Source of the DNA: Microgenomates group bacterium
GTDB taxonomy: Bacteria > Patescibacteriota > Microgenomatia > PFEM01 > JBNASD01
Assembly: GCA_049720225.1 (NCBI GenBank)
Contig: JBNASD010000001.1
Location: 164,733-228,732, forward strand
Length of the DNA stretch: 64,000 bases
Reading direction: 5' to 3'
This document shows positions 28,263-59,933 of this stretch, piece after piece. Position 1 is the first letter of the stretch; every line of letters begins with the position of its first letter. The notes beneath the pieces were generated by a model. It saw only the letters and a program-made list of their open reading frames with translations, made no database searches and was not told the origin of the DNA. Both the position numbers and the translations under genes were made by a program.

Positions 28263-28287
28263 TAATAGCTTTATTATAGCTTAATTT

Positions 28288-30299: not shown

Positions 30300-30300
30300 T

Positions 30301-31591: not shown

Positions 31592-31614
31592 CTTCCTTTT
31601 TTCACCATTTTAAT

Positions 31615-31665: not shown

Positions 31666-31704
31666 TGGGAAAAGTTGATTAAAAGAAAGTTAAAAAGAAA
31701 AAGC

Positions 31705-43575: not shown

Positions 43576-44461
43576 TTAAATATTTATTTTTGGTTATTTT
43601 TCCTAAAATAACGGCTAACCATGCTTTTGATTTTAGCATAAATTTAAGAATATTTTTTTGCCATTGAGATTTATGTTTTTGGTAAAAATAGCAAAGACCC
43701 CGATAAATATTTATAATCGGCCATTTTCTCCCCGAAGGAGAACTTCCTCCACCCAAATGAATAATCTCTGCTCCTGGCCAAAAAATTATTTTCCAACCTG
43801 CTTTTTTAATCCGCCAACACCATTCTACCTCATCCATATACATAAAAATTTCTTCGTCCATAAAGCCAGCATCTTTTAAAACTTCTGGTCTTACCATCAT
43901 CGCCGCCCCCATCACCCAATCTACCTCTTTTGTTTTTTTCGGAGAAAATCTTACCAAATTTCCAAACCAATGCTCACCAAAAAGCATTAAAAAAGAAACC
44001 CAAAGATGAGGAAAATAACCACAAGATGGCTGCCAACTACCATCCGGATTTAATAGCCGACAACCAAGTACTCCTATGTTAGGATTTTTATCCATAAATT
44101 CTGCCATTTTTAAGGGAGCTAAATTTTTAATAATTGTATCGGAGTTTAAAAGCAAAAAATATTCTCCCTCAGCTTTTCTCATTCCCTGATTATTTCCCGC
44201 TCCAAAACCTAAATTTTTCTTATTTTTTATAATTTTTACTCTAAAATTTGGTAAATTGGCAATTTTCAATTTAAAATTTTCCATTACCTCTATCGATCCA
44301 TCCTGCGAACCATTATCTACTAAGATAATTTCTTCGATTAATTTTTCCTTCCTTCCTTCTTTAATCAGAGATTCTAAACAATTTTTTAAAAGTTCTTTAG
44401 TATTATAAGAAAGAATAATGACAGATACTTTTGGTTTTTTGGTTATTTTTTTATTTTCCAT
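43535..44461 (-). CDS. Glycosyltransferase family 2 (WbbL-like)
   Basis: VSVIILSYNTKELL…LVDNGSQDGS…NLGFGAGNNQG…YMDEVEWCWR. Confidence 0.75.
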   Translation of the reverse strand: MENKKITKKPKVSVIILSYNTKELLKNCLESLIKEGRKEKLIEEIILVDNGSQDGSIEVMENFKLKIANLPNFRVKIIKNKKNLGFGAGNNQGMRKAEGEYFLLLNSDTIIKNLAPLKMAEFMDKNPNIGVLGCRLLNPDGSWQPSCGYFPHLWVSFLMLFGEHWFGNLVRFSPKKTKEVDWVMGAAMMVRPEVLKDAGFMDEEIFMYMDEVEWCWRIKKAGWKIIFWPGAEIIHLGGGSSPSGRKWPIINIYRGLCYFYQKHKSQWQKNILKFMLKSKAWLAVILGKITKNKYLIETYEEALAVIGK

Positions 44462-45033
44462 AAAGAATAAATAATTTCTCTTCCTGTATTAAATAAAAAC
44501 AAAATTCCGATCATAATTCCGGTCCAAACTAAAATTCTTGACCAAACAAATGATTCTATATGTTTGAGAATCACTTTTGTTTTATAAATTTTTCCCTCAA
44601 TCAATAATACAGGAGCAGCATCAGGAACTTTTTTTAAATAATAATCATCCTCTTGGGGCGTCCAACCAGCTACAAATAAAGATTCCTTGAGAGGATTAAT
44701 TAATTCTTCGCAATAGGTAAATCGTTGTGTATCACGAACTTTTTCTTGACAATATTCAGGAGGATGATTAAGTTTAATTACCGGTAAGGGCAATCCCCAT
44801 AACCAACTTTTTCCATAAGCTTTTTTAAAAAAATCAATTACTTCTTTGCGTGATAAATCTGTATAAAAAGCCCAAATACCAGGAAATTGATAAGTATCTC
44901 CTGGTTCTTTGGAACGAAAAGAGTCATAAAGCTCAGGAATTACTGGCCCAGGTAAAACTAAATAAAGAAGACCAAGAAAATAAATCAAAATTGCCAATTT
45001 AAAACCAAATTTTTTGAAATTATTTAACTTCAT
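44443..45033 (-). CDS. Hypothetical bitopic membrane protein (196 aa)
   Basis: N- and C-terminal hydrophobic segments; no motifs. Confidence 0.35.
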   Translation of the reverse strand: MKLNNFKKFGFKLAILIYFLGLLYLVLPGPVIPELYDSFRSKEPGDTYQFPGIWAFYTDLSRKEVIDFFKKAYGKSWLWGLPLPVIKLNHPPEYCQEKVRDTQRFTYCEELINPLKESLFVAGWTPQEDDYYLKKVPDAAPVLLIEGKIYKTKVILKHIESFVWSRILVWTGIMIGILFLFNTGREIIYSLWKIKK

Positions 45034-45036: not shown

Positions 45037-45639
45037 TTATTGAAATAATCTCGCTCTTCCTAAGCGATATTTAAACTCCTTCAGTTTTCTTTCGCCGATT
45101 TCTCTTGCGGGTACTCCGGCGACAATTTTTCCTGGAGGAACATCATGAGTAACAATGGCTCCCGCCGCCACCACTGCCCCCCGACCAATTTTTTTTCCTG
45201 GCATAATTATTGCCCGGGGACCAATAAAAACATAATCCTCAATTTCTACCGGTAATTCTACCGCTTTAAACTCAGGATCGTTAATATCATGTTTTGAATT
45301 ATAAATCATCACTTGGGAAGCAATATCAACATGATTACCAATTTTAATTTTTGCTCGCCCATCTAAAAAACAATGATCGCCCACAATTGTATCTTCGCCA
45401 ATTTCAATATTTTTTGGCTGAAAAAAATTTGCCCACATATGAATCGTTGATCCTTTACCAATTTTTATTCCTGCTAAACGATAAAAAAATTTCCTTATAG
45501 TATGAGAGGGAATATGGCCTACCCAACGCAAAAGCATTAATTCAAAATCCAACCAATAATTATAAATCCGATTCAAAATTTTCGGCCAAGCTTGAGAAAA
45601 AGTTAATTCTCTTCCCATTTTATCTTTAAATTTAAACAT
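45037..45639 (-). CDS. Hexapeptide-repeat (LbH) sugar O-acetyltransferase (WcaF/WbbJ-like)
   Basis: [25 protein letters not shown]…[43 protein letters not shown] hexad repeats. Confidence 0.75.
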
Positions 45640-46789
45640 TTTTACCTCCCACTCTTTCTAAAACTTTAATTATTTTTTGGGCGGTTTTTTGCCAATCAAA
45701 TTTTTTTACTTGTTGATAACCTAATTTTATCAATTTTTCTTTATTTTCCAAAGCTTTTATTATCCCGTAAGTAATCTCCTCTGGCTTATAAGGATTAACT
45801 AAAATTCCTGCCTTATTTACTACCTCTGGCAAACTTCCCACATTACTGGCAACTACTGGTACCCCCAAACTCATTGCCTCCAATACTGGAATTCCAAATC
45901 CTTCCCAAAAACTGGGAAGAACAAAAACTTCTGCTCCTTTCATAAGAAAGGGTATTTCTTCTTCCTTTACAAAATCAGTAAATATCACTTCTTTTTCTAA
46001 TCTTAATTCTTGAACTTTCTTAAAAATTTTTTCAAATAACCATCCTTTCCTTCCTGTAATTACCAAGTTAATTGTTTTTTCTTTTTTTAAATTTTTAAAA
46101 ATTTTAAACGCTTCTAAAAGACCTTCAATATTTTTACTTGGTTTAAGAGTGCTTAAAAACAAAATATATCTGTTTTTAATTTTATATTTTTCTTTAATTT
46201 TTTTAATTTTAGAATCAGAAACTGTTTGCGGAAAATTTTTGCTAACTCCCGGATAAGCCACGGTAATTTTTTCTGGAGGAATTTTATAAAAATTAACAAT
46301 ATCTTTTTTAGTGCTTTGAGAAATTGCCAAAATATGAGAAGCCCTCTTTAAAGAAAACTCAGTCCAATATTTTAATTTCCAGTAAATTGGTTTAGTAAAA
46401 TGGTAAGGGAATCGTAAATACCCCAAATCCATAATAGAAATCACTAAAGAAGAAGGCAAAAAAATTGGTACGTAATGACCAGGAATAAAAATTACATTAG
46501 GTTTAGGTTTTTCTTTTAAAAGCAGTTTTGACAATCCTAAAAGATTCCATAATCTTGTCGGTCCTCCTATTTTGTATCGCCAATTTTCTTTTGGAGGAGG
46601 TAAATCAGATAAAGGAGAAGAAGGTAAGAAAATTACATATTCGTTTTCTTTATCTTCTTCCCAAAGACTCCATAATAATTCAAAGACATATTGATTTGAA
46701 CCAACACGATTTTTAATATTTGCCTCGTAACCAACTAAACCAATTTTCATTTCAAAGAAGGACAATTTATTAAATCGATTATTACCCAA
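45632..46789 (-). CDS. Glycosyltransferase family 4 (module 1, paired with the downstream GT-C)
   Basis: [29 protein letters not shown]. Confidence 0.8.
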
Positions 46790-48198
46790 TTAGAATCTTT
46801 TTCTAAAACCGGACAGGTTTCTATTAAACTTAAAGTAACTTCATCAAAATTTACCGCTACATAATGAGTAGCACCCTTTTTTATCAAATTAGAAATTGAT
46901 TCAGAAACTATCGGCCATCCTTTCCGATTAATTTGGTATAAAAAGGCGGTATCCCCATTATAAGGCGCAATTACCCTTGCGTTAGGAGGAAGAATTTCAT
47001 TCGCTTTCTTTCCCACCTCAATTATTTCCGGATGATTTATCTGATAAAAACCACGAATCTCATACCACGAAAAACCTAAAGAAAAAATTAAAAACACAAT
47101 TGCTAATCCCCAAGACAAAATCCAATAAAAATTTTTTGAATAATTACTAATTAAAAAATAAAAACCTTTGGCTAAAAAAACAGCCACTACAGGAAGAATA
47201 ACAATTTGATAATAATCATGCTGAATATTTCCTCGAGCAAAGACAGAAAAATAAGTAAAAATTCCCATTAACCAACTATAAAAAAGAATTTCTTTTGTAA
47301 ATTTTTTAAATCTCCAAATTATTCCTAATCCCAAAAAAACCGTTCCCCAATATCCCAAAATCAATTTTCCCAATCTTTCGGCAAAAAGCCAACGCCACCA
47401 CGCCGGTTTAAATCTAATTCCTTCTAAATTAAAAAGCCACTGATTAGCAGGAATTCCCTCGGGAAATTTTTGCATCCAAATACGCCATAACCCAAAAGGA
47501 AGTAATGAAAGAGAGGCATAAATTATTAAAAAAGGAAAATATTTTTTTCCAAAAATCACCAACCAACTAGGAAGAAGAAGAAACAAAATATAAGGTTTTG
47601 TCAAAATTGCCAATATACTCATAAATAAACTTATCAAAAAGTAGAATATTTTCTTTTTATCCTCCGAATCTACTTCTTTCCACTTTAAAAGAAAATAAAT
47701 ACTCCCCAAACCAAACATTATCATTGTTGGTTCAGGTAGGATTACTCGTGAATAAAAAATATTGAAAGGAAGAAACATAAAAAATCCAAAGGCAATTAAA
47801 GCTATCCAATCATTTAAAATTTTTTTAGTAATTAAATAAAGAAAAATTCCTCCAATCAACGAAGAAAAAATTGTTACCAGTCTCCCGGCTCCTTCAAATG
47901 AAATTAAATCTTTTTTAAACCAACCAAAAAATTCAAATAAAATGGCATGAAAAGCATTATAAAGAGGAAACTCAACAAATCGCCAACCAAAAGGATTATC
48001 TTTTCCCGAAGCAACATTAGATAAATCATCAAAACGAGGATGAAGTAAATCAATCCCCTCTTTAACAAAATTTCTAGCTACCGCCGCGGTATCTGCTTGT
48101 CGCCATGAATGCCAATCTGCTAAAGGAGAATTAATTTTATATAATCTCACCAGTAAACCAAAAAGAAGCAAAAAATATAAAACAATTTTTTTAAGCAT
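46747..48198 (-). CDS. GT-C fold polytopic membrane glycosyltransferase, ArnT/PMT_2 (GT39/83)-like (module 1)
   Basis: N-terminal loop LLVRLYKINSPLADWHSWRQADTAAVARNFVKEG resembles the ArnT/PMT first-loop Asp motif; ~11 TM; 483 aa. Confidence 0.5.
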   Translation of the reverse strand: MLKKIVLYFLLLFGLLVRLYKINSPLADWHSWRQADTAAVARNFVKEGIDLLHPRFDDLSNVASGKDNPFGWRFVEFPLYNAFHAILFEFFGWFKKDLISFEGAGRLVTIFSSLIGGIFLYLITKKILNDWIALIAFGFFMFLPFNIFYSRVILPEPTMIMFGLGSIYFLLKWKEVDSEDKKKIFYFLISLFMSILAILTKPYILFLLLPSWLVIFGKKYFPFLIIYASLSLLPFGLWRIWMQKFPEGIPANQWLFNLEGIRFKPAWWRWLFAERLGKLILGYWGTVFLGLGIIWRFKKFTKEILFYSWLMGIFTYFSVFARGNIQHDYYQIVILPVVAVFLAKGFYFLISNYSKNFYWILSWGLAIVFLIFSLGFSWYEIRGFYQINHPEIIEVGKKANEILPPNARVIAPYNGDTAFLYQINRKGWPIVSESISNLIKKGATHYVAVNFDEVTLSLIETCPVLEKDSNWVIIDLINCPSLK

Positions 48199-48210
48199 AT
48201 TTAAAAAATT

Positions 48211-49290
48211 TTAACATTTTATTGCTTCTTCATAAACTTTTAAAGTTTCTTGAGCGGTTTTTTCCCAACTAAATCTTTTAACATTTTCTAAACCCTTTTT
48301 TATTAGTTCTTCTTTAAATTTTTTATTCTCAACTAATTTTTTTATTCCTCTTTTAATATCCCCAATCAAAAAAGGATTTACCAAAATCGCTCCCTCTCCT
48401 GCCACCTCAGGCATGCTGGAAATATTAGAAGTAATTACTGGACAACCACAGGCTTGTGCTTCTAAAATCGGCAAACCAAAACCTTCATAAGTTGAGGCAT
48501 AAATTAATCCTAAAGCTCCCTTATATAAAAACGGTAAATCTTGCTCCTCTACATATGGTTGACCAATCACAAAAAGATTAAAACCTTTTACTGCTTTTTT
48601 AATTCTTTCAAGATTTTTTCTTTTTGGTCCGGCAAAAGCTAAAAAATATTCTCCTTTAATTTTATATTTCTTCTTAATTTCCTCAATTTTGAATTTTGAA
48701 CTTTGAATTTTGAACTTTTTTAGATCTACCCCTTCATATATCACTCTTATTCTTTCATTCGGAATTCCTAAAATTTTAACAATATCTCTTTTGGTTGAGT
48801 GAGAAACAGCAATTATTAATTTACTTTCTTTTTTCACCCATTCTAATTTTCTTTGATGAACCGCTCTAATTTTTGGATGAACATCCTCGGGGTATATGAA
48901 AGGAGTTAAATCATGAATGGTGGTTACTTTAAAACATCTTGCTGGTGGTTCAAGCCAATCTGAAGTATGAAAAACATCTACCTTACCAATTAAACTTTCT
49001 ATTGGCAAAATATGAAGTTTATTCCATAAAAAGTCTAATATTGTCGGAGGAAATTTAAAATTTCTTATTTGAAAATTAGAAAATTGGAGTTTTAAAGTTG
49101 GAATTTTTTTTCTAAAAGAGGAAAAGAAAAAAATATATTCATTCTTTTTGTCTATCTTTAAAAGATTCTCTACCAAATTTTTAGTATAAACACTTACCCC
49201 CCCACCATAAACAATTTGCGAAATATCAATTCCGATTTTCATAAACCAAAAGAGGTATTTGATTAAAACTAACTTCTTTAATTTTAACAA
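48211..49290 (-). CDS. Glycosyltransferase family 4 (module 2)
   Basis: EGFGLPILEAQACGCPVITSNISSMPEVAG; paralog of the 45632 and 38842 GT4s. Carries heptamer tract 48686-48720. Confidence 0.8.
   Translation of the reverse strand: MLKLKKLVLIKYLFWFMKIGIDISQIVYGGGVSVYTKNLVENLLKIDKKNEYIFFFSSFRKKIPTLKLQFSNFQIRNFKFPPTILDFLWNKLHILPIESLIGKVDVFHTSDWLEPPARCFKVTTIHDLTPFIYPEDVHPKIRAVHQRKLEWVKKESKLIIAVSHSTKRDIVKILGIPNERIRVIYEGVDLKKFKIQSSKFKIEEIKKKYKIKGEYFLAFAGPKRKNLERIKKAVKGFNLFVIGQPYVEEQDLPFLYKGALGLIYASTYEGFGLPILEAQACGCPVITSNISSMPEVAGEGAILVNPFLIGDIKRGIKKLVENKKFKEELIKKGLENVKRFSWEKTAQETLKVYEEAIKC
48686..48720. repeat. Heptamer tandem repeat A(T/C)TTTGA x4-5 inside GT4 gene 48211..49290
   Basis: attttga attttga actttga attttga acttttt; encodes KFKIQSSKFKI at the position homologous to the KFKILNFKFKI tract of paralog 38842..39978. 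Confidence 0.6.
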
Positions 49291-50680
49291 ATCCTTCTTC
49301 TTCTAACCACCTGAGAATTTTTCTTTCCCTGTCGTAAACATCTGTTAAATAAGGAGTATAGGCTATTTTTTGTTTACTAATTTGACCAATCATCCCAATT
49401 AAACCAATTTTATCTTCTTCTTTTATTTCTCTTGCTTCCTCTACTACTCCTATTACCTGCTTTTCTACACCATAATACACTAAAGGCCAATTAAAAGCAG
49501 ATGAAGAAATTACTATTGGGATTTTTTCTTTTTTTAAGTATTCTGCCACTCCTCGCCAATCTTCTCGCCAAAAATAGGAATTAGTCCAATAAGTGAAAAC
49601 CGCTAACACATTAATTCCCAAAATCAATCCAATTATCCCCAATTTTAATTTTTTATTTTTAATCGCTAGAATTCCCTTACTTAAAATCAACAAAAAAGCG
49701 GGTAAAACCAAAATTAACCGAAAGGGTTGATAATTTGGTATTTTTAAAGAAAATAGCCACGCAACCAAAACTGGCAATAAAAACCAAATTAAAATTAATT
49801 TATATTTGTCACTTTTATAATTTTTATAAATTCCCCAACTTTCTATTCCCCCAACCAATCCTAACAATCCTAAAATTACTAAGGCATAAATTTTTTTATT
49901 AAAAATTGTGATTCTTCCCAAGGTAAACTTCACAAAAGTCAAAGGTAAAGCTTTCCAAAAATTTAAATTAACTACTGCCTTCCATTCTGGCAAATTTTGA
50001 GTTCCCGCTAATCCTTCCTTAACCTGCTGAACTATTACTGAAACCCAAGGAAGATAGAAAATAAAAATTCCTAAATAAATAGGTAAAAATTGGCTTAAAT
50101 AATTTTTTAAATTTTTCCGAAAAATAATTAATCCTCCCAAAAATTGACTCAAAATTAATAAAAATCCATAATAATCCGTATAGATTAAAAGAAGGGTGAA
50201 AATTAAATAAAAAATTTGAAATCTAAACTGAAGTTTTGCGTTTTGCGTTTTGCGCTTTGCGTTTTTTAAAATTTTTATCCACCAATACATTGAAAAAGTA
50301 GCCAAAAAACAAGCCATCGCATACATTCTTGCTTCTTGAGAGTAATAAATATGAAATTGAGATGTAGCTAAAAATAAAGCAGAAATTAAACCCCAATTTT
50401 TCCCACCAATTTTGTAAATTAAATAAATTGTTCCTATACCAAATAAAACCGAAGGTATTCGTATACTCATCTCCGACCAACCAAAAATCTTTCCCCAAAA
50501 ATGAAGCAATAAATAATATGCCGGAGGATGAAAATCACCTTTACTAAAATTACTAATTATTTCTCTTAACATTAAATCTCGAGCTACTAACGCGCTAATT
50601 GCTTCATCTAACCATAAGGATTGATTTAAATTTATTAATCGAAAAATTAAAGAAAAGCAAAGAATTAAAAAAATCCACAT
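49226..50680 (-). CDS. GT-C fold membrane glycosyltransferase, ArnT/PMT_2-like (module 2)
   Basis: First loop …NLNQSLWLDEAISALVARD (WxDE); polytopic; 484 aa. Carries TTTTGCG x4 tract 50234-50261. Confidence 0.6.
   Translation of the reverse strand: MWIFLILCFSLIFRLINLNQSLWLDEAISALVARDLMLREIISNFSKGDFHPPAYYLLLHFWGKIFGWSEMSIRIPSVLFGIGTIYLIYKIGGKNWGLISALFLATSQFHIYYSQEARMYAMACFLATFSMYWWIKILKNAKRKTQNAKLQFRFQIFYLIFTLLLIYTDYYGFLLILSQFLGGLIIFRKNLKNYLSQFLPIYLGIFIFYLPWVSVIVQQVKEGLAGTQNLPEWKAVVNLNFWKALPLTFVKFTLGRITIFNKKIYALVILGLLGLVGGIESWGIYKNYKSDKYKLILIWFLLPVLVAWLFSLKIPNYQPFRLILVLPAFLLILSKGILAIKNKKLKLGIIGLILGINVLAVFTYWTNSYFWREDWRGVAEYLKKEKIPIVISSSAFNWPLVYYGVEKQVIGVVEEAREIKEEDKIGLIGMIGQISKQKIAYTPYLTDVYDRERKILRWLEEEGFVKIKEVSFNQIPLLVYENRN
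50234..50261. repeat. Heptamer tandem repeat TTTTGCG x4 inside GT-C gene 49226..50680
   Basis: ttttgcg ttttgcg ttttgcg ctttgcg; encodes KRKTQNAK-type heptads. Confidence 0.65.
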
Positions 50681-50686
50681 AAATAA

Positions 50687-51889
50687 TTACTTTTTTAAAA
50701 TTTCTTGAAAAAGCTTATAATAAGTATTCATAATTAAAGGGAGTCTATATCTACTTTCGATTTCTAATCTTGCTTTTTCTCCTATTTTTTCTCTTAATTG
50801 AGAATTGTTAATTAAAAAAGATAAAGCGGAAAATAGCGATTTAACACTTCCCGTTTTAACTAACCAACCTGTTTTTTTATGTTTAATTACTTCATTAATT
50901 CCCCCCACATTACTTCCAATTACCGCCAATCCACAACTCATTGCCTCTAATAAAGAAAATGGTGTTCCTTCGGGAAAAATTGAGGGATAAACAAAAACAT
51001 CAGAGGCTTTTAACCAATCTACTATTTCTTCCCTTCTTTTTTCTCCTAGAAAAAAAATATTTTTTTCTGATTTTTTACTCTTTTCCTTTAATATTTCTTC
51101 TACTGAATCAGGTTGATTTTTTCCCGAACCTATTAATAACAACAAAGCGTTTCTATTTTTCCTTCCCAATTTATTCCATACTTCAATAAGATTAATTAAC
51201 CCTTTCCTTTTTACTAATCTCCCACAATAAGTAACAATTATTTTTTTAAGCGGTAATCCTAATTTTTTTCTCAATTTTAATTTTTTTTCTTTTTTAAGAG
51301 GGAAAAATAGTTTATCTTCTATTCCATCAGGAATAATTTTTATTTTTTTAGAAGAAACGCCAAAAATTAGAAGTTCTTTTTTAATTTGTTTTGTTTGGGC
51401 GATGAAAAAATCCGCTTTCCTAACTATTTTTAATCTTAATTTAATTAAAGGATGAACAAATTTTTTTGGCGATAATGAATAAGGTCCGCTAAAAAAAAGT
51501 TCGCCGGGAGTGGCTACCCGACTAATCACTTTTTTTCCTAACAATTTTCCTACCAAAATAGCGGTTGATCCAAATATATTAGCTAATCCTCCATTTACAT
51601 AAACTAAATCAAAGTCATTTCTTTTTTTAAACATAAAAATAAAAAGACTTAATCCGCTAAAATAATCTTTTAATCTACCTTCTCCTGGTAATCCCAACCG
51701 AAAAACTTTAAAACCCTCTTTAAAATTTTCTTCTTTTAAAAAGCTTTTCTCCCATCTTTTGGTGGCTATATTGACTTTTATTTTTTTTCTAGATAAATAT
51801 TCAGCCAATTGCCAACACTGAGTTTCTGACCCTCCTTTTAAAGGAAAAAATCTTTCGATTACCATTAAAACGGAAAAATTTTGTTTCAT
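50687..51889 (-). CDS. Glycosyltransferase family 4 (module 3)
   Basis: MVIERFFPLKGGSETQCWQLAEYL; EGTPFSLLEAMSCGLAVIGSNVGGINEVI. Confidence 0.8.
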   Translation of the reverse strand: MKQNFSVLMVIERFFPLKGGSETQCWQLAEYLSRKKIKVNIATKRWEKSFLKEENFKEGFKVFRLGLPGEGRLKDYFSGLSLFIFMFKKRNDFDLVYVNGGLANIFGSTAILVGKLLGKKVISRVATPGELFFSGPYSLSPKKFVHPLIKLRLKIVRKADFFIAQTKQIKKELLIFGVSSKKIKIIPDGIEDKLFFPLKKEKKLKLRKKLGLPLKKIIVTYCGRLVKRKGLINLIEVWNKLGRKNRNALLLLIGSGKNQPDSVEEILKEKSKKSEKNIFFLGEKRREEIVDWLKASDVFVYPSIFPEGTPFSLLEAMSCGLAVIGSNVGGINEVIKHKKTGWLVKTGSVKSLFSALSFLINNSQLREKIGEKARLEIESRYRLPLIMNTYYKLFQEILKK

Positions 51890-53418
51890 TTAAATCCCCA
51901 TGAATAAAGCTCGATTGGCCATTTATTCCAATCTAAAGAAAACCAAGCAACTTCTTCTTTTTTTTCAAAATCTAAGTTTTTTCTTACATAGTCCACTAAA
52001 CCGGCTGGATAAAAACGAAAATTATGTTCTATAATTACTACAAAACCCTGAGGATATCTTCTTAATAATTCCTTGAATTCATCTAAATTATGGATAAAAA
52101 TACCGCCGCTATTTTCATTTATTTTCTTTTCTAAAGAAACATCGTTTCTAGGAATAAACAAATTTTTTCCTTCTCCCAAATACCAAGCAGGTATGTCATG
52201 GCTAATATCTACCAACGCTACTTCATTTATTTTCTCTCCGCTTTTTTCTTTTATTAATTTATAAATTCCTTTGTAATCTATTTCAGGAATTTCTCGCATA
52301 TCAAAATTAAGAGTGTAAAAAGATTTAGGCTTTAAAGAAAATTTGTTACCGTTAATCACTATAAATAAAATTAAAAAAATAAAAAGAACTTCTGCGGTTT
52401 TTTGTTTTTTACCTATGATTCTACTTATTTCCCATAAAGTAAATGAGGTAAGAATAAAAAAAATAGGAAACAAATTTAAAGCGTATTTTTCAAATGATAC
52501 TCCTATTAAAAAGGAAATACTAAATAAATATATAATTATAAACACCAACAAAAAATGAAATAGTTTTTTTTCATTTTTAAACCACAAAATTATTAAACCT
52601 AATAAACTTAAAAAACTAATAAGACTATATTGACGCCAAAATAAAGAATGATAATAAAAAAGAAAATTTTTATTTATATTCAAATTTAAAATTTTATCCC
52701 GAAAAACAACTTTAAAAACAGGAAAAAAATTTGTTCCAAAAAATAATAACAATATAACCCCTAATAACAGTAAAATAAAAAATTTATTTTTAATCAAAAA
52801 AGATAAAATATCTTTTCGAAAAAGAATATATATAAATCCAAAAAGAAAAATAATTAATCCTAATGTATGAACCCAAACAGAAATAAAAGCAAAAATTAAA
52901 AATAAGAATAAATTGAGTTTTCTTTTTTCTTTAACAAAAAGATAAAAATTCAATAACGCAAGAAGATAAAAAACTTCCAAAATTACATATCCCCTCGCTT
53001 GTCTTGACCAGGCAATTTGAATATAAGAAAATGTAGTTAAAGTTGCCCCTCCTAAACCAACTAATTTATTAAAAACTTTTTCTCCAAAAATATAAGTTAT
53101 TAAAATTAAAATACTTCCAAAAATTATTTCAGGAAGTCTTCCTGAAAATTCATTTACACCGAAAATTAAAAAACTTAAAGCAGTAAGATAGTGGGTAATA
53201 AAATAAGAATTTTCTTTATAGCCGGTATAAGGAATTTGGGGAAAACCAGTTTCTAAAATACCTCGAGCAAATCGAGCGGTTGATGCTTCATCAGTCCAAA
53301 AAGAATAATTTTTAGATAATCCATTTATTCTTAATAAAAAGCCAATTATTAATAAACAAAAAATTAAGATTTCGATTATATTTTTTCTTAAAAAATTTCT
53401 CATTTTTTCAAATATCAT
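51886..53418 (-). CDS. GT-C fold membrane glycosyltransferase, ArnT/PMT_2-like (module 3)
   Basis: First loop …YSFWTDEASTARFARGILETG (WxDE); polytopic; 510 aa. Confidence 0.6.
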   Translation of the reverse strand: MIFEKMRNFLRKNIIEILIFCLLIIGFLLRINGLSKNYSFWTDEASTARFARGILETGFPQIPYTGYKENSYFITHYLTALSFLIFGVNEFSGRLPEIIFGSILILITYIFGEKVFNKLVGLGGATLTTFSYIQIAWSRQARGYVILEVFYLLALLNFYLFVKEKRKLNLFLFLIFAFISVWVHTLGLIIFLFGFIYILFRKDILSFLIKNKFFILLLLGVILLLFFGTNFFPVFKVVFRDKILNLNINKNFLFYYHSLFWRQYSLISFLSLLGLIILWFKNEKKLFHFLLVFIIIYLFSISFLIGVSFEKYALNLFPIFFILTSFTLWEISRIIGKKQKTAEVLFIFLILFIVINGNKFSLKPKSFYTLNFDMREIPEIDYKGIYKLIKEKSGEKINEVALVDISHDIPAWYLGEGKNLFIPRNDVSLEKKINENSGGIFIHNLDEFKELLRRYPQGFVVIIEHNFRFYPAGLVDYVRKNLDFEKKEEVAWFSLDWNKWPIELYSWGFK

Positions 53419-54659
53419 GATTTAGCTTTTAAAATTTTAAATACAAACCAATTATTAACCAGCAAACCATAAAATTCACTTATCCCTAAAGATAAAACCG
53501 CCCCCATTAACCCTAACCGAGGGATAAAATAAAGACAAAGTAAAAAATGCAAAATTAATTTTCCACCTAACCACCAAACAAATTTTTTAATTTCCGCGGT
53601 GTTTTGAATAATATTCCCTGGCAAACTATTTAAGAAAAAAAGTCCGGCTACTATTCCTAAAAATTTCATTACTTTTTCCCCTTCTAAATATGAAGAACCG
53701 TAAGAAAATTTAATAATTAATGAAGAAAAAAACCAAAAAATTAAACCATAAATTAAAGAAAAAACAAAAATTAATGATAAAGATTTAAGATAGTTTTCTT
53801 TCAATTTAATTTTATGGTGAACTTTATTTGCTTTTAAAAGCCGAGCAGTTTGAGGAAATAATGCTAAGGCAAAACTTTGAGGAAGAAGCAAACTAGCTTC
53901 TAAAAACTTAAAACTTGAAGAATAAATCCCTGTCCAGTATGCTCCTTTAAACCAATTAATCATTACTACTCCCATTCTTAGATAAAAAACAGCAATAATC
54001 GTTATTGAAGCAAAAACTACTGATTCCTTAATAATTTTTCTCCAAAAGACAAAATCTTTATCAATTTTAAATTTCAAGCCAATTTTCTTTGCTAAGTTAT
54101 ACATAATTAAAGAAACAATTAAGTTTCCTAAAAAAGCCGAAAACAAAACCAAAGTAACATTTCCTTTAAACCCAGCAGTCACTCCTCCTAAAAAAGCCAC
54201 CAAACTACTCATTAAAACAATCGCAAGTGCTTGAATTTCCATTCTTTCAAAAGCATTGGCAATTCCTGCTACCAATTGATTAAAAGTCCACGGCAATAAA
54301 CATAAGGAAAAAATAAAGACATTTAACCTATCAAAATTATTTTTAGAAAGAAAAAACCCTAATAAACTTACCAAAATAATAGAAATAATCGCCAAAACAA
54401 CTCTTAGGGGAATAATTTTTTGAAAATATTCCTGGGCTTTAGAAGTATCTTTTGATAAATCGCGTAAAATCAATCTTTCTACCCCAAAGTCTGCTACTGG
54501 ATAAAAATTATAAACCAAAGCAATCGCAAAATTATAATGACCAAAATTTTCTACTCCAAGAACCCTTCCTAAAAAAATAAAATAAAAAAACCCAATTACT
54601 CTTGCTAAAAAATTGGCGGAACCTAAAAAGAAGGTATTTTTAATTATTTTTCTTTCCAT
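53415..54659 (-). CDS. Oligosaccharide/polysaccharide flippase (Wzx/PST family)
   Basis: 414 aa, ~12 TM; N-terminal IIKNTFFLGSANFLARVIGFFYFIFLGRVLG typical of PST flippases. Confidence 0.6.
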   Translation of the reverse strand: MERKIIKNTFFLGSANFLARVIGFFYFIFLGRVLGVENFGHYNFAIALVYNFYPVADFGVERLILRDLSKDTSKAQEYFQKIIPLRVVLAIISIILVSLLGFFLSKNNFDRLNVFIFSLCLLPWTFNQLVAGIANAFERMEIQALAIVLMSSLVAFLGGVTAGFKGNVTLVLFSAFLGNLIVSLIMYNLAKKIGLKFKIDKDFVFWRKIIKESVVFASITIIAVFYLRMGVVMINWFKGAYWTGIYSSSFKFLEASLLLPQSFALALFPQTARLLKANKVHHKIKLKENYLKSLSLIFVFSLIYGLIFWFFSSLIIKFSYGSSYLEGEKVMKFLGIVAGLFFLNSLPGNIIQNTAEIKKFVWWLGGKLILHFLLCLYFIPRLGLMGAVLSLGISEFYGLLVNNWFVFKILKAKS

Positions 54660-54664
54660 CCTTT

Positions 54665-55000
54665 TTATTTTACTTTTTCTTCTCTTAAAACTTCAAACAT
54701 CATTTGAATTACTCCTATTACCAAAAACACATATACCCAAATCGCTGATTTTTCCGCTAAAAAATCTTTTTTTAAAATCAATAAAATTGGACATAAAATC
54801 AATAATCCCAAAGCTACTTTTACCGAATCTCTTCCCTCAAATTTATAAAGTTTTATTGTTAAAATCCATAACCCCGCTAAAAATAAAATAACCAAATCAG
54901 AAATAAATTTAACCAAAAAAATATCAAATAAAATACCAAAAATAGTAAAAATTAAAATAACCAACTGATACTTTTTAATAAATTTTTTAATTTTTTTCAT
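54665..55000 (-). CDS. Small polytopic membrane protein (111 aa, 3-4 TM); possibly GtrA-like
   Basis: Hydrophobic helices only; size and context next to flippase and GT-C genes; no sequence signature. Confidence 0.3.
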   Translation of the reverse strand: MKKIKKFIKKYQLVILIFTIFGILFDIFLVKFISDLVILFLAGLWILTIKLYKFEGRDSVKVALGLLILCPILLILKKDFLAEKSAIWVYVFLVIGVIQMMFEVLREEKVK

Positions 55001-58000
55001 TTTTATTTTTTAAATTCGAAATAAAATCATATCCTAAATAACTCAGGCATCCAGCGAAAGTTAGTAAAGATATTCCCAAACCTATGTAAAAAAATCGTTG
55101 AGGCCAAAATTCAACAATTAGCTCATAATTTTCTGCTCCTCCTACATCCTCGGGAGTTATATACCACGAATTAGCGTAACCATTTACCAAATAATGTCTC
55201 TCTTCGGCAATCGATTTTTTTCCCCAAGTTTCAAAAGCGGCTGGTTCCAAAAAAGTCATTCGATGGGTTCCCTCTTTAATTTCTCCATCAAAATAACTCG
55301 CCACTTCTTCTCCATATCCCCGATTATCTAAAAACAAATCAGTAACTTTCTCTCCTATTTTTCCAATCATCCCTACAACCACATCTCTTAAGTCTTTAAA
55401 TTTTAAGTTTTGCGCTTTGCCTTTTGCGCTTTGCGCCTCTTTAAGATATATTTTCCATCCTTCATGAAAACTTTCAGAAAAAACTAAGGTATAAGGAGTT
55501 TTGGCTTCTTCTATCTTTATTTTGTACTTTGTCGGATTAACTTTTATAAAAGTAATCTTGGGAATTTGGAATTCGGAGTTTGGAATTTGAAGTCTTTTTC
55601 TTAATATTACTTTTGGTTCCCTTACTTTTTTAATCTGTAAATTTCTAAATTCTACCCTAGCAATTTTGCCTGTTTCTGGTTCGGAATAAAAATAAATTTC
55701 TGCTCCTACCGCTTCGTTATCCGCCTGAAAAACTCTCTCAAATTTTTGCCAATCATTTTCTTCTGAAAATTCCCCGCTGGTTAATTTCTTTTCAAAAATT
55801 TTTTCTTTTCTAATTCTTTCTTTTTCTTCTTCGTATATTCTTTTCTCTTCTACTATTCCTAATCCTAATCTTCCCCCTTCAGTTTTATATTCAAAACTTA
55901 AATAATAGAATTCTCCTGATTGCCAATCATTAATTGGCTGAAAAACTAAATCTTTTGCCTCTGGAAAAAATCCTTGTTTCTCAAAAAATACTCCTTCTTC
56001 TTTTGTTTCTACATCTTTCAATTTTTGCCAATCTTTTCCTACTAAATTAATTCCTTCTAGTAAATATAGTTTTAATTTATGCTCTCCTTCTTCTAACTTT
56101 ATTTTTCCCAATTCTATCCACTCTTCATTTATTTGGAAATTTTCTATTTCTATTTTTTCTCCATCTATTTCTATTTCTCCAATACCAAAATTTTCTAAAC
56201 CCTTATTTTCTTCTTTATTTGGAACTTGGATTTTGGAGTTTGGAATTTCTAAATATAGCGTATATTCTCCTTCCTTTGGTATTTCTAAGACATAATCTAA
56301 TTCATTTAAATCAAATTTTCCTTCAAATTTAGCTATTTTTTTATCTATTTCCTCAAAAGTTTCTTTCCAATTTTTAAACGTTTCAATTTTTAAATCTTTT
56401 AGTTTTTTTATCTCCTCCTGATGTCTTTCAAAATAAGCCCTCAATTTTATTATTTGCTCTTTCTTAATTTCTTGGCTTTCTAATTTTTCAACTTCTTCTC
56501 TTGTCTCCTCAAATTTTTTCTTCCATTCCTCAATTATTAACAAATTATCTATGTCATCTGTAAATTTAACCAACTCTGAGATTCTTTTTCCAGCAAAAAA
56601 TAATTTTTTATCAATTAATTTTTCAGAATTTTTTCTTACTTTCCATTCTTCATAATTTTCTTTTATTTTTGCTAGTTTCCATCCCAAACTATTTGGTTTG
56701 TGTCTTACATAAGGAAAAGACACCTTACTTTTAAAATTCTCCAATTTCTCCCAATAATCTTTATCTATTCCATTTTTCAATTCTCCTACTATTAAAATCT
56801 CATTTGCTTTTTCTAAAATTTCTCCATTCTCTAGTTTTGAGTTTTGAGTTTTGAGTTTTGAGTTTTCTAAGTATATTCCCAACCTTAATTCATCATCACT
56901 TAATTCAATAATTTCTTTTAGATTATCTGTTTTTCCATTAGAGTAGATAATGCGTTTAGAAATGTAAAAGTGTGGTAGAAAGTTTTTATCTTCAGTTTTA
57001 TAAATAGCTACTCTATCAAAATTCCTCTCTAAAATAAAAAATTTATCAATAAATGGTTTTATAAAGTAAGCAGGTCTAATATTTAAGTAAACTTTATTAG
57101 TTGACTCTTCTCTTAAAAATATATATTTAGTATTTAAAAATCCAGAAAATCTTTTCAAAAATAAAGCGAAGCTCTCTGGATTATCTAAATAAAAATAATA
57201 TAAACTGCTATTTATTTCTCTATAATTATCAAAATTAAATTTATCTAAATAATATATTGGCAAAGAAATTAATCTAGCCAAAGGATCAGCTCCTCCGTAA
57301 AGTCCACTTTCTAAATTAAGTATAATTATCCCCGGAACCTCAACAGCATTATCCGGAAGACTTAAAATTTTAAAGTTAATTTTTTGTTTTTCTAAAAAAC
57401 TTCTTATTTCTTCATAATAATTAGGAATTTTAAATCTAAATCCAGGTAAATTTTTAGTCTCTTCTCTCCATACATCACCCGTCCAGAAAGGCCATCCATA
57501 TAGATTAACTAAAAAAAAAGAGAAAAAAATAAAAATATGTTTAATATACCTTCTTTTTATCAAAAAAAGAATTAATGTTAAACTGTAACTAATCAAAATA
57601 CTATTACTTATACATATAAGAGGACCAAATTTTTCATATGCCATTCTAAACCCTTTAAAGATTAAAAATTTATTCAATAACCATTGATTTACTTGGTCAA
57701 ATGGCTCATGAATTCCCTTGCTTAGAAATATTCCTATTAAGAATACTACCCAAAAAAATAGTGTAAAATACTTAGTTTCTCTATTTTGTTTTTTTAAAAA
57801 AATTAAATTTAGAAATATTAAAAATAAAATTATAAAACTAACAAGGATAAACAACCATTTGTTATAAATAGGAGAATAAGGATAGTAAAAATCCTCTCGA
57901 TATTTTCCCCAAAACCCCCAATCTCCAAGATTACGAAATAAATTTAAAATACTTGAAAAACTACTTGATGTTACTTCTTGTTTAAATAGAACAGTTGACT

Positions 58001-58784
58001 TTATAAAATGTTGATATCCACTAAAGCTTCCTAATAAAGTAGCTAATATCCAAAAAGTAAAGATAATTCCATTAATCAAAAAAGAAATTAAAAAATATTT
58101 CAAAAAATAAATTAATTTTATTCTCTTTTTTATATTTTTTAAAAATTCTAAAAGTAAATCTAATACAATAATTACTAAAAATGGACCAATATATGCGGGA
58201 TTAGTTAGAGACGGGAGAGAAAATAAAAAAAATAAACTCATATAAAAAATGAACTTAAAATTTCGACATTCTTTTCCTTTAAACCACATCAGAATTAAAA
58301 AAGGAAAAAACGCATAAAAAAACAATCCCATTAAATAACCACTTCCCCATTTTAATTGTAATAAATATGTATTAATCATATAAAAATTAGCACCAATTAA
58401 ACCACTTATTTGTTTATGTTTAAATTCAGAAAAAGATAAAAGATATTTAATTAAAAAATATGCCCCTATTCCTGAAAAGGTAAATATTAAATAAAATAGT
58501 ATTTTTTGACATGAATATATAGAAAAACCTGTTTTAAATAATAAAAATAAAAATAAATTATAGGTAAAGATTTTAAAAGAAGCAAAATAATCCGCTCTGC
58601 CTAACTCTTGCTGGTGATCCCACCAAAATAGAGAACGAAGTAAATCATTTGGAGGATTCAAAGAAAAGTTCGTATCACCTGGATTAACTAAATATTGTCC
58701 TTTAAACCAAGAAATAGATAAAAAACCAAAAAGAAAAATAATTAAAATATAAAATATATCTTTTTCGATAATTTTCTTAACCAT
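54987..58784 (-). CDS. Giant (1265 aa) membrane protein: N-terminal ~450-aa polytopic domain (GT-C/AftD-DUF3367-like?) + ~800-aa extracytoplasmic Glu/Lys-rich domain with heptad-repeat inserts
   Basis: N-terminus MVKKIIEKDIFYILIIFLFGFLSISWFKGQYLVNPGDTNFSL… with >10 TM; C-terminal soluble region with coiled-coil-like KEE-rich stretches and a beta-rich terminal domain. Contains three heptamer tracts (55408-55435, 55561-55595, 56221-56248, 56834-56867). Confidence 0.45.
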   Translation of the reverse strand: MVKKIIEKDIFYILIIFLFGFLSISWFKGQYLVNPGDTNFSLNPPNDLLRSLFWWDHQQELGRADYFASFKIFTYNLFLFLLFKTGFSIYSCQKILFYLIFTFSGIGAYFLIKYLLSFSEFKHKQISGLIGANFYMINTYLLQLKWGSGYLMGLFFYAFFPFLILMWFKGKECRNFKFIFYMSLFFLFSLPSLTNPAYIGPFLVIIVLDLLLEFLKNIKKRIKLIYFLKYFLISFLINGIIFTFWILATLLGSFSGYQHFIKSTVLFKQEVTSSSFSSILNLFRNLGDWGFWGKYREDFYYPYSPIYNKWLFILVSFIILFLIFLNLIFLKKQNRETKYFTLFFWVVFLIGIFLSKGIHEPFDQVNQWLLNKFLIFKGFRMAYEKFGPLICISNSILISYSLTLILFLIKRRYIKHIFIFFSFFLVNLYGWPFWTGDVWREETKNLPGFRFKIPNYYEEIRSFLEKQKINFKILSLPDNAVEVPGIIILNLESGLYGGADPLARLISLPIYYLDKFNFDNYREINSSLYYFYLDNPESFALFLKRFSGFLNTKYIFLREESTNKVYLNIRPAYFIKPFIDKFFILERNFDRVAIYKTEDKNFLPHFYISKRIIYSNGKTDNLKEIIELSDDELRLGIYLENSKLKTQNSKLENGEILEKANEILIVGELKNGIDKDYWEKLENFKSKVSFPYVRHKPNSLGWKLAKIKENYEEWKVRKNSEKLIDKKLFFAGKRISELVKFTDDIDNLLIIEEWKKKFEETREEVEKLESQEIKKEQIIKLRAYFERHQEEIKKLKDLKIETFKNWKETFEEIDKKIAKFEGKFDLNELDYVLEIPKEGEYTLYLEIPNSKIQVPNKEENKGLENFGIGEIEIDGEKIEIENFQINEEWIELGKIKLEEGEHKLKLYLLEGINLVGKDWQKLKDVETKEEGVFFEKQGFFPEAKDLVFQPINDWQSGEFYYLSFEYKTEGGRLGLGIVEEKRIYEEEKERIRKEKIFEKKLTSGEFSEENDWQKFERVFQADNEAVGAEIYFYSEPETGKIARVEFRNLQIKKVREPKVILRKRLQIPNSEFQIPKITFIKVNPTKYKIKIEEAKTPYTLVFSESFHEGWKIYLKEAQSAKGKAQNLKFKDLRDVVVGMIGKIGEKVTDLFLDNRGYGEEVASYFDGEIKEGTHRMTFLEPAAFETWGKKSIAEERHYLVNGYANSWYITPEDVGGAENYELIVEFWPQRFFYIGLGISLLTFAGCLSYLGYDFISNLKNKNEKN
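55408..55435. repeat. Heptamer tandem repeat (T/C)TTTGC(G/C) x4 inside the 1265-aa gene
   Basis: ttttgcg ctttgcc ttttgcg ctttgcg; encodes AQSAKGKAQN. Confidence 0.65.
55561..55595. repeat. Heptamer tandem repeat GGA(A/G)TT(T/C) x4-5 inside the 1265-aa gene
   Basis: ggaattt ggaattc ggagttt ggaattt gaagtct; encodes LQIPNSEFQIPK. Confidence 0.65.
56221..56248. repeat. Heptamer tandem repeat GGANNTT x4 inside the 1265-aa gene (same unit family as 55561-55595)
   Basis: ggaactt ggatttt ggagttt ggaattt; encodes IPNSKIQVPN. Confidence 0.65.
56834..56867. repeat. Heptamer tandem repeat TTTTGAG x4.6 inside the 1265-aa gene
   Basis: g ttttgag ttttgag ttttgag ttttgag ttttc; encodes LKTQNSKLKTQNSKLEN. 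Confidence 0.7.
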
Positions 58785-58790: not shown

Positions 58791-59933
58791 TTATTTTAGA
58801 TTTTTAAAAATTTTATTTATTATTTTGAAAATTCTTTCTGAAGCTTTTCCATCTCCAAAAGGATTTTTAACTTTGCTCATTTTTAAATATTTTTTTTTGT
58901 TATTCAATAAGAATTCAACCTCAGATACTATTTTTTCTTTATTTGTCCCTACCAATATACCAGCTCCTATCTCAACAACTTCTGGTCTCTCCGTAGTATT
59001 TCTCAAAATCAACACTGGTTTACCTAACGAAGGCGCTTCTTCTTGAATACCTCCAGAATCACTTAAAATTAAATAACATTTTTTCATTAAATAACAAAAT
59101 GACAAATAATCTAAAGGCTTTAAAAGTTTAACGTTAGAAATTCCTTTTAAATTTCTCTTTACTGTTTCTTGAACATTAGGATTTAAATGTACAGGATAAA
59201 CAATTTCTATTTCATCTCTGTATAATTGACTTATCTCTCTTACTGCTAAACAAATATCTTCCAAAGGCTTTCCAAAGTTTTCTCTTCTATGGGCAGTAAT
59301 TAAAATTATTTTTTTTCTAAAATCAATTTTTTTAAGTTCTTTATCAAGACGTTTTCTTTTTTTAAGTGCTAAAAATAGGGCATCTATCACAGTATTTCCT
59401 ACTATAAATATTTTGTTTTTTTCAATTCCTTCCTTTATTAAATTTTCACTTGCTTTTTTAGTAGGAGCAAAATTAAAATCCGCTATATGACTAACCAAAC
59501 GTCTATTGATCTCTTCCGGAAATGGTTGATATTTATCAAAACTTCTTAATCCTGCTTCAATGTGAGCTATTTTAATTTTCTGATAATAACAAGCTAAGGC
59601 AGCAGCTAATACTGTTGTTGTATCTCCTTGAATCAATACCAAATCAGGTTTTTCTCTTATTAAGATATTTTCAATTCCTATTAGTATTTTAGAAGTAACC
59701 TCTGAAAGGGTTTGATTTGGTGTCATTACTTTTAAATTGATATCCGGAGTTATTTCAAAAGCTTCCAAGACATCATCTAACATTTCTTTATGTTGACCAG
59801 TTGAAATTATCTTTACTGAAAAAATCTTTGAATGTTTTTTAAATTCAAAAATAACAGGAGCCAATTTAATTGCTTCTGGCCTGGTACCAAAAACAAAAAA
59901 GATTTTTTTTAATTTATTTTTCTTTTTTTGCAT
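58791..59933 (-). CDS. wecB: UDP-N-acetylglucosamine 2-epimerase (non-hydrolysing)
   Basis: KIFFVFGTRPEAIKLAPVI…HIEAGLRS…; 380 aa. Confidence 0.85.
   Translation of the reverse strand: MQKKKNKLKKIFFVFGTRPEAIKLAPVIFEFKKHSKIFSVKIISTGQHKEMLDDVLEAFEITPDINLKVMTPNQTLSEVTSKILIGIENILIREKPDLVLIQGDTTTVLAAALACYYQKIKIAHIEAGLRSFDKYQPFPEEINRRLVSHIADFNFAPTKKASENLIKEGIEKNKIFIVGNTVIDALFLALKKRKRLDKELKKIDFRKKIILITAHRRENFGKPLEDICLAVREISQLYRDEIEIVYPVHLNPNVQETVKRNLKGISNVKLLKPLDYLSFCYLMKKCYLILSDSGGIQEEAPSLGKPVLILRNTTERPEVVEIGAGILVGTNKEKIVSEVEFLLNNKKKYLKMSKVKNPFGDGKASERIFKIINKIFKNLK

Follow-up and report, generated by a model that had tools for sequence, protein, structure and literature searches.

The multi-component glycosylation systems of Gram-positive bacteria follow a logic that leads from the cytoplasm through a flippase to a glycosyltransferase of the GT-C fold at the outer face of the membrane; in GtrA/B/C, CsbB/GtcA/YfhO, GacI/J/K/L and the Csd pairs of L. 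lactis the GT-Cs act outside on a glycopolymer from another pathway, and a Wzx-type flippase can serve (PMC8035078). A comparable two-compartment logic, with GT-B enzymes including members of family GT4 in the cytoplasm and GT-Cs at the far face after flipping, is shared by the eukaryotic assembly of lipid-linked oligosaccharides (ALG1/2/11, RFT1, ALG3/9/12/6/8/10) and by the mycobacterial pathways to phosphatidylinositol mannosides, lipomannan and lipoarabinomannan (LM/LAM) and to arabinogalactan. Here, we describe a glycan operon in a stretch of 64,000 nucleotides (the window) from a Microgenomates group bacterium (assembly GCA_049720225.1, contig JBNASD010000001.1, positions 164,733 to 228,732), whose metagenome-assembled genome has a low GC content of about 25–35%. 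An initial annotation of three consecutive GT4 and GT-C gene pairs in this stretch concluded that they match no textbook pathway, but this was overstated, since cytoplasmic GT-B/GT4 enzymes, a flippase and GT-Cs acting outside represent the logic of three known systems. The likeness to the eukaryotic and mycobacterial pathways is one of logic only, with no orthology, although one of the GT-Cs has ALG12 and ALG9 as fold matches. We consider it probable that the operon, which extends from about position 64000 to 34064, makes a polyprenyl-carried heteroglycan of the cell envelope by a Wzx/Wzy-type route, with an extracytoplasmic stage carried out by four GT-Cs.

All of the open reading frames (ORFs) listed in the initial annotation are present at its coordinates and every one of them is located on the minus strand. 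They are transcribed in the order giant GT-C, 111-amino-acid (aa) protein, Wzx, GTCc, GT4c, GTCb, GT4b, GTCa and GT4a, and the run continues downstream of GT4a with genes for an acyltransferase, a 196-aa membrane protein, a GT2, a Wzy_C protein, a GT4, a GT2, two further GT4s, ManC, a WbaP-type phosphoglycosyl transferase and a DUF4012 protein. Upstream of the giant are genes for WecB, a methyltransferase, a GT4, a radical SAM/SPASM enzyme, an acyltransferase and, truncated where the window ends, another methyltransferase. The genes form an unbroken same-strand run, tightly packed or overlapping, from the right window edge to about 34064, and because the reading frame at 63560-64000 is open to the end of the window, the operon must run on beyond it. 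The region covered by the initial annotation makes up the upstream, variable half of a single long operon. The adjacency, overlap and coordinates of its GT-C and GT4 pairs hold, whereas the order within each pair has to be reversed, because on the minus strand the GT-C gene comes first and the GT4 gene second.

The Wzx/Wzy-type reading is carried by three proteins that occur together in one locus. These are an initiating polyprenyl-phosphate phosphoglycosyl transferase with a WbaP/PglC-type catalytic domain (35989-36627; Bac_transf 211 bits, NCBIfam EPS_sugtrans 260 bits), a Wzx-type flippase of the MOP family (53415-54659), for which a Polysacc_synt match of 85.8 bits bears out the earlier call, and a Wzy_C-domain membrane protein (42106-43575; 35.6 bits against a cutoff of 31.7). 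The same operon encodes seven GT4s, two soluble GT2s, WecB, ManC, two acyltransferases, methyltransferases and a radical SAM enzyme, along with three ArnT/PMT_2-like GT-Cs and one AftD-like GT-C with domains resembling carbohydrate-binding modules (CBMs). In common with the Wzx/Wzy-type assembly of O-antigens, capsules and exopolysaccharides, the locus has the phosphoglycosyl transferase, a cytoplasmic GT4/GT2 set, Wzx, a Wzy_C protein, precursor genes and acetyltransferases. Unlike in those systems, there is no recognizable chain-length regulator, as judged from the absence of a Wzz/PCP family match in the window, and a DUF4012 protein is found in its place. A further difference is that four GT-Cs are encoded within the operon, and that Wzy_C is fused to a GT-C in some relatives.

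We hypothesize that the phosphoglycosyl transferase and the GT4 and GT2 enzymes assemble a lipid-linked oligosaccharide in the cytoplasm, that Wzx flips this molecule across the membrane and that the Wzy_C protein polymerizes or ligates it thereafter. At the outer face, the GT-Cs may attach or elongate sugars, drawing on polyprenyl-monophosphate sugars as donors, while the AftD-like giant could hold the polymer by means of its lectin-like domains. According to this model, the donor synthase would be a GT2 encoded outside the window, and Wzx may serve the repeat unit rather than a lipid-linked donor sugar. Candidates for the acceptor are a wall-linked polymer, a lipoglycan and a protein.

Some features recall the Gram-positive multi-component systems. 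Relatives of the cluster have a transmembrane (TM)-anchored GT2 beside GTCb, or a GT2 fused to it, and the small helper proteins with 3–4 TM segments of those systems may be compared with the 111-aa protein (54665-55000). The one Wzx of the locus may or may not serve as the flippase of such a system. The description of the latter as a small membrane protein is supported by hydropathy, which predicts 4 TM segments. It has no Pfam or NCBIfam match, with the Pfam search taken to E≤5, and no GtrA or SMR signature, but is kept between the giant and Wzx in loci L001, L005, L092, L102 and L106. The locus differs from the multi-component systems in that no GT-A-fold C55-phosphate-sugar synthase and no recognizable GtrA are encoded in the window, and in that four GT-Cs of four families are encoded in one operon, alternating with GT4 genes.

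GTCa (46747-48198), GTCb (49226-50680) and GTCc (51886-53418) are GT-C fold enzymes, as had been proposed, for which the use of polyprenyl-phosphate sugars as donors is putative. They reach 30.9, 28.3 and 38.6 bits, respectively, against the Pfam PMT_2 gathering score of 26.1, which are small margins, and GTCa is additionally above the threshold for Pfam PMT (31.3 against 22.7 bits). The first-loop motifs that had been read from the translations are confirmed as DWHSWRQADT in GTCa (aa 28–37), LWLDEA in GTCb and FWTDEA in GTCc. Their acidic residues are invariant within each family: D28 and D36 in 46 sequences of GTCa, D25/E26 in 23 sequences of GTCb and D43/E44 in 31 sequences of GTCc. For GTCa, more than 5243 homologs with about 50% identity were identified, and its DWHSxRQxDT first loop is invariant, while the GTCc family is small, with 50 matches.

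No match to PDB sequences was obtained in single-sequence searches with the giant and the three GT-Cs, nor with the family profile of GTCa, and a fold search was therefore needed. A structure model was made for GTCa (AlphaFold, pLDDT 90.9), to which GTCb and GTCc were tied by profile comparison. The best Foldseek match of GTCa is ArnT (5F15, TM-score 0.67), followed by STT3/AglB/PglB, ALG12/ALG9, DPY19, Pmt4 and AftA/AftB. Down to an E-value of 0.06, all of the 38 matches are GT-Cs, with the exception of 7W72_U, a glycosylphosphatidylinositol transamidase (E 5.5e-3). Transporters and G protein-coupled receptors appeared at noise level only, and a transporter identity of the polytopic proteins is hereby excluded. 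Comparison with hhalign linked the GTCa family to that of GTCb (98.1% probability, E 6.5e-14) and to that of GTCc (97.1% probability, E 5e-11), in both cases over about 300 columns.

These proteins can be compared with ArnT of family GT83 (5F15/5EZM) and the bacterial or eukaryotic PMTs of family GT39. Besides being best matched by ArnT, GTCa has a small C-terminal periplasmic domain like that of ArnT, and all three GT-Cs have an acidic first-loop motif. In contrast to ArnT and PMT, GTCa has no sequence-level match to any solved structure, and its first loop reads DWHSxRQxDT with no DE motif. Moreover, the neighborhood of the GT-C genes encodes neither a synthase of the ArnC or Ppm1 type nor ArnE/F.

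The similarity to PMT raises the question of whether the system might serve protein O-glycosylation. One such scenario is that the GT-Cs O-mannosylate secreted, pilin or S-layer proteins from polyprenyl-phosphate-mannose, another that the Wzy_C protein acts as a PglL-type O-oligosaccharyltransferase onto protein, or both. The Wzy_C family includes PglL-type enzymes, ManC of the operon provides GDP-mannose, GTCa passes the PMT threshold with Pmt4 among its fold matches, and an ortholog of GTCb matches TMEM260_N, the N-terminal domain of the protein O-mannosyltransferase TMEM260. However, GTCa fits ArnT, STT3 and ALG12 better than any Pmt. The GT-Cs are encoded within a complete polysaccharide operon that also specifies seven GT4s, two GT2s, a phosphoglycosyl transferase and Wzx and is located beside the division and cell-wall (dcw) gene cluster, and the CBM-like domains of the giant suit a glycan acceptor. 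We therefore regard a protein O-glycosylation system as unlikely.

The giant, a protein of 1265 aa (54987-58784), is a distant GT-C of the AftD family. It had been described as GT-C-like with a huge extracytoplasmic domain, and this was borne out by both profile and fold searches. The protein itself has no Pfam match, but homologs with 25–50% identity reach PF11847 (GT-C_AftD), the full-length ones being about 42–50% identical. A profile of 32 family members matched the AftD structures of M. abscessus (6W98/6WBX) with an E-value of 1.8e-13 over about 540 positions. With a model of residues 1–1200 (pLDDT 80.2), AftD was the top Foldseek match (E 2e-11), followed by the STT3/PglB oligosaccharyltransferases. 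The model indicates a polytopic N-terminal GT-C domain from aa 1 to about 440, a periplasmic alpha/beta domain at about 445–640, a helical bundle at about 675–818, and beta-sandwich CBM-like domains at about 828–1100 that weakly match CBM22/16/4. The C-terminus contains a single TM segment at aa 1231–1252.

The residues K39, D41, E251, K361 and D474 are essential in AftD (bioRxiv 10.1101/2019.12.22.885152). Based on an inferred offset of +3 between chain and native numbering, K385 of the giant aligns with K361 and is conserved in 30 of the 32 family members, while D500 aligns with E475, adjacent to D474, and is acidic in 24 of the 32. The candidate catalytic acid is Asp37 in the first extracytoplasmic loop (58674-58676), which is acidic in 31 of the 32 members and located near AftD D41, two residues ahead of the start of the alignment. 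E251 and K39 have no clear counterpart in the giant.

The N-terminal GT-C domain of the giant is homologous to that of mycobacterial AftD, and both proteins have a long periplasmic region with beta-sandwich, lectin-like domains and a C-terminal TM anchor. There are also differences. Aligned by structure, the two proteins are no more than about 13% identical, the giant contains the helical bundle as an insert, and it ends in a single TM segment whereas AftD has a short C-terminal TM region of multiple helices. There are no genes of the decaprenyl-phosphoarabinose pathway near the giant, and the host is a bacterium of the candidate phyla radiation (CPR). AftD homologs have been reported solely from Actinobacteria (bioRxiv 10.1101/2019.12.22.885152), so the AftD-like proteins described here extend the family beyond that phylum. 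No UbiA-like or DprE-like genes were identified among the window ORFs of at least 100 aa, and since arabinose-donor genes are thus missing from the window, the giant should not be called an arabinofuranosyltransferase.

We also considered the possibility of a lipoglycan of the LM/LAM type, in which PimA/PimB-like GT4s would glycosylate a lipid anchor in the cytoplasm and GT-Cs resembling PimE, Mpt, Emb and Aft would elongate and branch it after flipping. The mycobacterial lipoglycan pathway combines GT4s, GT-Cs and a flippase, which is also the make-up of this locus, and the giant is AftD-like. The GT4s moreover match the glycolipid synthases GlcN_PG_synth, IagA/BgsA and Mgs, but these matches are weak and all far under the family cutoffs. 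The presence of a phosphoglycosyl transferase of the WbaP type and of a Wzy_C protein instead indicates a repeat unit linked to undecaprenyl diphosphate, and the arabinose-donor genes of the UbiA or DprE type are absent from the window. A lipoglycan of this kind appears slightly less plausible still than protein O-glycosylation.

Turning to the origin of the GT-C and GT4 pairs, our data did not support the idea of a triplicated, paralogously expanded module. GTCa and GTCb are 25% identical (E 7e-4) and GTCb and GTCc 28% identical (E 5e-9), in both cases over only some 200–250 N-terminal residues, and no BLAST match was found between GTCa and GTCc. The relationships among the GT4s do not mirror those among the GT-Cs: GT4a (45632-46789; Glycos_transf_1 134.6 bits) is about equally near to the GT4 at 38842 (32%) and to GT4b (33%; 48211-49290; 75.5 bits), while GT4c (50687-51889; 139 bits) is distant from both. 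The three GT-Cs thus represent old, separate families, the GT4s show no co-duplication with them, and these pairwise identities rule out a recent tandem triplication of a GT4 and GT-C cassette.

The ORFs overlap by 4 to 65 nt within the GT-C and GT4 pairs. The mechanically called ORFs of GT4a and GT4b begin at TTG, but internal ATG codons at 46750 and 49242, giving proteins that start with MKIG, agree better with the lengths of the orthologs (344 aa for GT4b in L005) and are the likely true starts. With these starts, the overlaps of the two genes shrink to 4 and 17 nt, and the range to 4 to 17 nt. Such overlaps are found along the entire operon and are nothing special to the pairs.

To place the pairs in a broader context, we collected loci from one genome per species, using GTCa as the anchor. 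At least 582 matches were obtained, and the ORFs were classified in the best 80 of these and in two loci found earlier, giving 82 loci. The shared order is (GT2)-GTCb-(x)-GT4b-GT4a-HEX-U196-GT2-Wzy_C-GTCa-GT4w-GT2-GT4-GT4-ManC-PGT-DUF4012-recO, where HEX is the hexapeptide-repeat acyltransferase, U196 the 196-aa membrane protein and PGT the phosphoglycosyl transferase. Among the 80 loci in which the gene upstream of GTCa is visible, this is the Wzy_C gene in 66. GT4a is located directly after GT4b in 54 of 66 loci and after GTCa in none. A second set of loci was collected with GTCc as the anchor, and the position of GT4c was scored in 14 loci with an orthologous GTCc. These loci include a small subclade that has the upstream half of the window in common with it. 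The order in this subclade is giant-(x)-small protein-Wzx-GTCc-GT4c-GTCb-(x)-GT4b-[slot]-GT4a-HEX-U196-GT2-Wzy_C, and GT4c directly follows GTCc in 12 of the 14 loci. In L093 and L095 there is no gene in the slot before GT4a, which elsewhere is occupied by 1–4 tandem genes of another PMT_2 family. In the window and in L005, it is GTCa that resides in the slot, while it is absent from its usual site after the Wzy_C gene.

The c and b pairs thus represent inherited gene order within a subclade, and the a pair a relocation into a variable slot. A module of GTCa and GT4a was not supported, since their juxtaposition is special to this lineage and GTCa elsewhere follows or is fused to Wzy_C. The alternation is not unique to this genome, given that the c and b pairs are conserved in the GTCc-anchored loci. 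The initial annotation had asked whether the adjacency is conserved in any relative, and the order from GT-C to GT4 is indeed kept in L005, L088 and L090 as well as in most of the GTCc loci. We suggest that the alternation of GT-C and GT4 genes could reflect inherited operon order combined with a slot ahead of GT4a into which varying GT-C genes are inserted, rather than enzyme pairs.

The PMT_2 genes that occupy the slot elsewhere belong to a fourth family with the first loop FTYDQARD, of which 1–4 tandem members separate GT4b from GT4a (L088:15312-16808, L089:17030-20251, L090:15192-21397, and also L098, L099 and L103). Its members are 30–36% identical within one genome and represent a true local expansion of paralogs, found in the relatives but not in the window.

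Gene fusions provide a second line of evidence on functional partnerships. A search for multi-domain ORFs in about 170 loci identified Wzy_C and GTCa in single ORFs of about 1010–1060 aa in Gottesmanbacteria-type genomes. Nine of these are full-length (L037:8312-11437, confirmed by Pfam, and L030, L049, L050, L053, L057, L065, L075 and L086) and two more are cut at a contig edge (L020 and L081). L095 encodes a 774-aa GT2–TPR–GTCb fusion (7843-10167; Pfam Glycos_transf_2 121.8 bits, PMT_2 59.6 bits), and in the common gene order GTCb is immediately preceded by a GT2 gene in 16 of 35 loci, several of these GT2s having C-terminal TM helices. No fusion of a GT-C with a GT4 was found in the about 170 loci. 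A physical coupling of GT-C and GT4 was not supported, since the fusions join GT-Cs to Wzy_C or GT2 but never to GT4. In the manner of a Rosetta stone, the Wzy_C fusions connect GTCa with polymerization or ligation, whereas the GT2 fusion and neighboring GT2 genes tie GTCb to a GT2 donor synthase. Judging from these arrangements, the evidence points to the usual donor logic from GT2 to GT-C for GTCb, and to GTCa and the Wzy_C protein acting together.

The remaining alternative is that GT-C and GT4 are true two-enzyme modules, in which the retaining GT4, in place of a GT2 synthase, could supply the GT-C of the preceding gene with an alpha-linked polyprenyl-phosphate sugar or with a primed lipid acceptor. 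Such a partnership would represent a lipid-linked donor route that bypasses the GT2 synthases of all known systems. In its favor are the adjacency of a GT4 in all GT-C families of the cluster, which outlasts rearrangement, the overlap of stop and start codons within the pairs, the lack of a GT2 synthase in the window and the contiguous run of three alternating pairs, which has a probability of p≈1.7e-4 under random order of the 25 cluster genes. It is nevertheless very improbable, as GT4a and GT4b are direct neighbors with no GT-C between them in most other loci, the GT4 neighbor of GTCa changes with lineage from GT4w to GT4a, one GT4 is shared by arrays of 2–4 GT-Cs, the fusions of GT-Cs are with other partners, and we know of no GT4 that uses a polyprenyl monophosphate acceptor.

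Several observations also weigh against a Wzx/Wzy-type envelope glycan. First, every GT-C gene or array of the cluster has a GT4 gene next downstream in both gene orders, which is beyond chance and not explained by our model. Second, no membrane-anchored GT2 or polyprenyl-phosphate-sugar synthase was found in the 64 kb, where the operon is cut by the right window edge, and neither was a GtrA-type flippase or an LCP ligase. The TM-anchored GT2s of the relatives, which are candidate donor synthases, gave only weak and generic NCBIfam matches. Third, the Wzy_C match does not separate polymerases, ligases and protein O-oligosaccharyltransferases. Finally, we found no biochemical or glycan-structure data for any member of the Microgenomates in the literature.

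With regard to the donor, the initial annotation was right that no GtrB-like GT2 is encoded in the window, as its two GT2s have no TM segments and only generic matches. The syntenic locus L001 encodes a 344-aa GT2 with a C-terminal hydrophobic helix two genes past the equivalent of the window edge, which is a lead rather than a result. Two GT2s upstream of the giant in L092 resemble ordinary soluble-type GT2s with one hydrophobic stretch.

CPR bacteria live attached to or dependent on other cells, and the cell surface is therefore central to their biology. There is, however, no experimental knowledge of the surface glycans of Microgenomates or other CPR bacteria, and we found no paper on this cluster in the literature on Patescibacteria, Microgenomates or CPR with GT-C, GT39 or O-antigen. 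Our study defines a gene cluster that adjoins the cell-division genes and is conserved in hundreds of species. Its variable, GT-C-rich upstream part may be the site where surface diversity arises, and the Wzy_C–GT-C and GT2–GT-C fusions provide testable functional links. A new principle of glycan assembly is not indicated on present evidence.

The genes upstream of the giant encode WecB, a non-hydrolyzing UDP-GlcNAc 2-epimerase that makes UDP-ManNAc (58791-59933; NCBIfam wecB equivalog 508 bits against a cutoff of 210, Pfam Epimerase_2 418 bits), a SAM-dependent methyltransferase (59914-60567; Methyltransf_11 79 bits) and GT4u (60569-61738; Glycos_transf_1 96 bits). Together with the giant, they form a conserved block of the order GT4, methyltransferase, WecB, giant, and orthologs of GT4u adjoin the giant in L001–L004. 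Further upstream are a radical SAM/SPASM enzyme that is possibly sugar-modifying (62077-63111; Pfam Radical_SAM and SPASM), the gene for which is kept upstream of the giant in L001, with radical SAM genes likewise upstream of the giant in L002, L003, L089 and L090, a hexapeptide-repeat acyltransferase (63098-63559; Hexapep 52 bits, syntenic in L001) and the 3' part of the methyltransferase gene at the window edge (63560-64000), the translation of which matches a 233-aa methyltransferase in the syntenic L001.

Downstream of GT4a, the hexapeptide-repeat acyltransferase HEX (45037-45639; Pfam Hexapep) directly follows GT4a in 59 of 66 loci. It is succeeded by U196 (44443-45033), a bitopic protein with no Pfam match up to E≤5, orthologs of which occupy the equivalent place in many loci. 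Levybacteria- and Shapirobacteria-type loci (L051:6735-9923 and 23 others, such as L018, L026, L043 and L062) encode Wzy-like proteins of about 990–1080 aa and then lack the 196-aa gene; the one in L051 has no Pfam match. The soluble enzymes GT2x (43535-44461; Glycos_transf_2 92 bits, no predicted TM segments, generic NCBIfam and PDB matches only) and GT2y (40012-40935; Glycos_transf_2 100 bits, no predicted TM segments) are encoded on either side of the Wzy_C gene and of GT4w (40907-42109), which was assigned by Pfam and directly follows GTCa in 78 of 81 other loci. Two further GT4s assigned by Pfam, GT4y (38842-39978) and GT4z (37727-38836), precede ManC, a mannose-1-phosphate guanylyltransferase that makes GDP-mannose (36630-37748; NTP_transferase and ManC_GMP_beta-helix). 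The DUF4012 membrane protein (34064-36022; 78 bits) is encoded by the last gene of the cluster before recO, and in nearly all loci its gene follows that of the phosphoglycosyl transferase. Past this gene, at 14748-33512, are recO, a class II aminoacyl-tRNA synthetase gene and the mraZ–ftsZ division and cell-wall cluster, and the neighborhood of recO, the aminoacyl-tRNA synthetase gene and mraZ–ftsA/ftsZ is kept in most of the 82 loci.

Elsewhere in the window, a second MOP-family flippase is encoded far from the glycan operon (474-1685, minus strand; Polysacc_synt, MatE and a weak MurJ match). A 958-aa protein (1764-4640, plus strand) combines a GH130-like stretch with matches to alpha/beta-hydrolases of the lipase/PGAP1 type.

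Among the relatives, small genes of the 23S_rRNA_IVP/bAvd type were observed inside the glycan cluster (L001:12954-14281, L005:2301-2690 and L089:15524-15922), and none in the window. Many records titled "uncultured Gammaproteobacteria" or "Pseudomonadales" (L009-L013, L017, L020 and many more) carry a typical Microgenomates cluster, and these titles look wrong. Distant PMT_2 relatives with 25–33% identity were found in L110-L170 (for example L128, L131, L136, L140 and L147-L149). In many cases, the next genes encode a protein of about 350–400 aa with one TM segment and a polytopic one of about 650–900 aa that has 11–17 hydrophobic segments, while Wzx and a set of GT4 and GT2 genes are located on the opposite strand, in what looks like a different conserved GT-C neighborhood.

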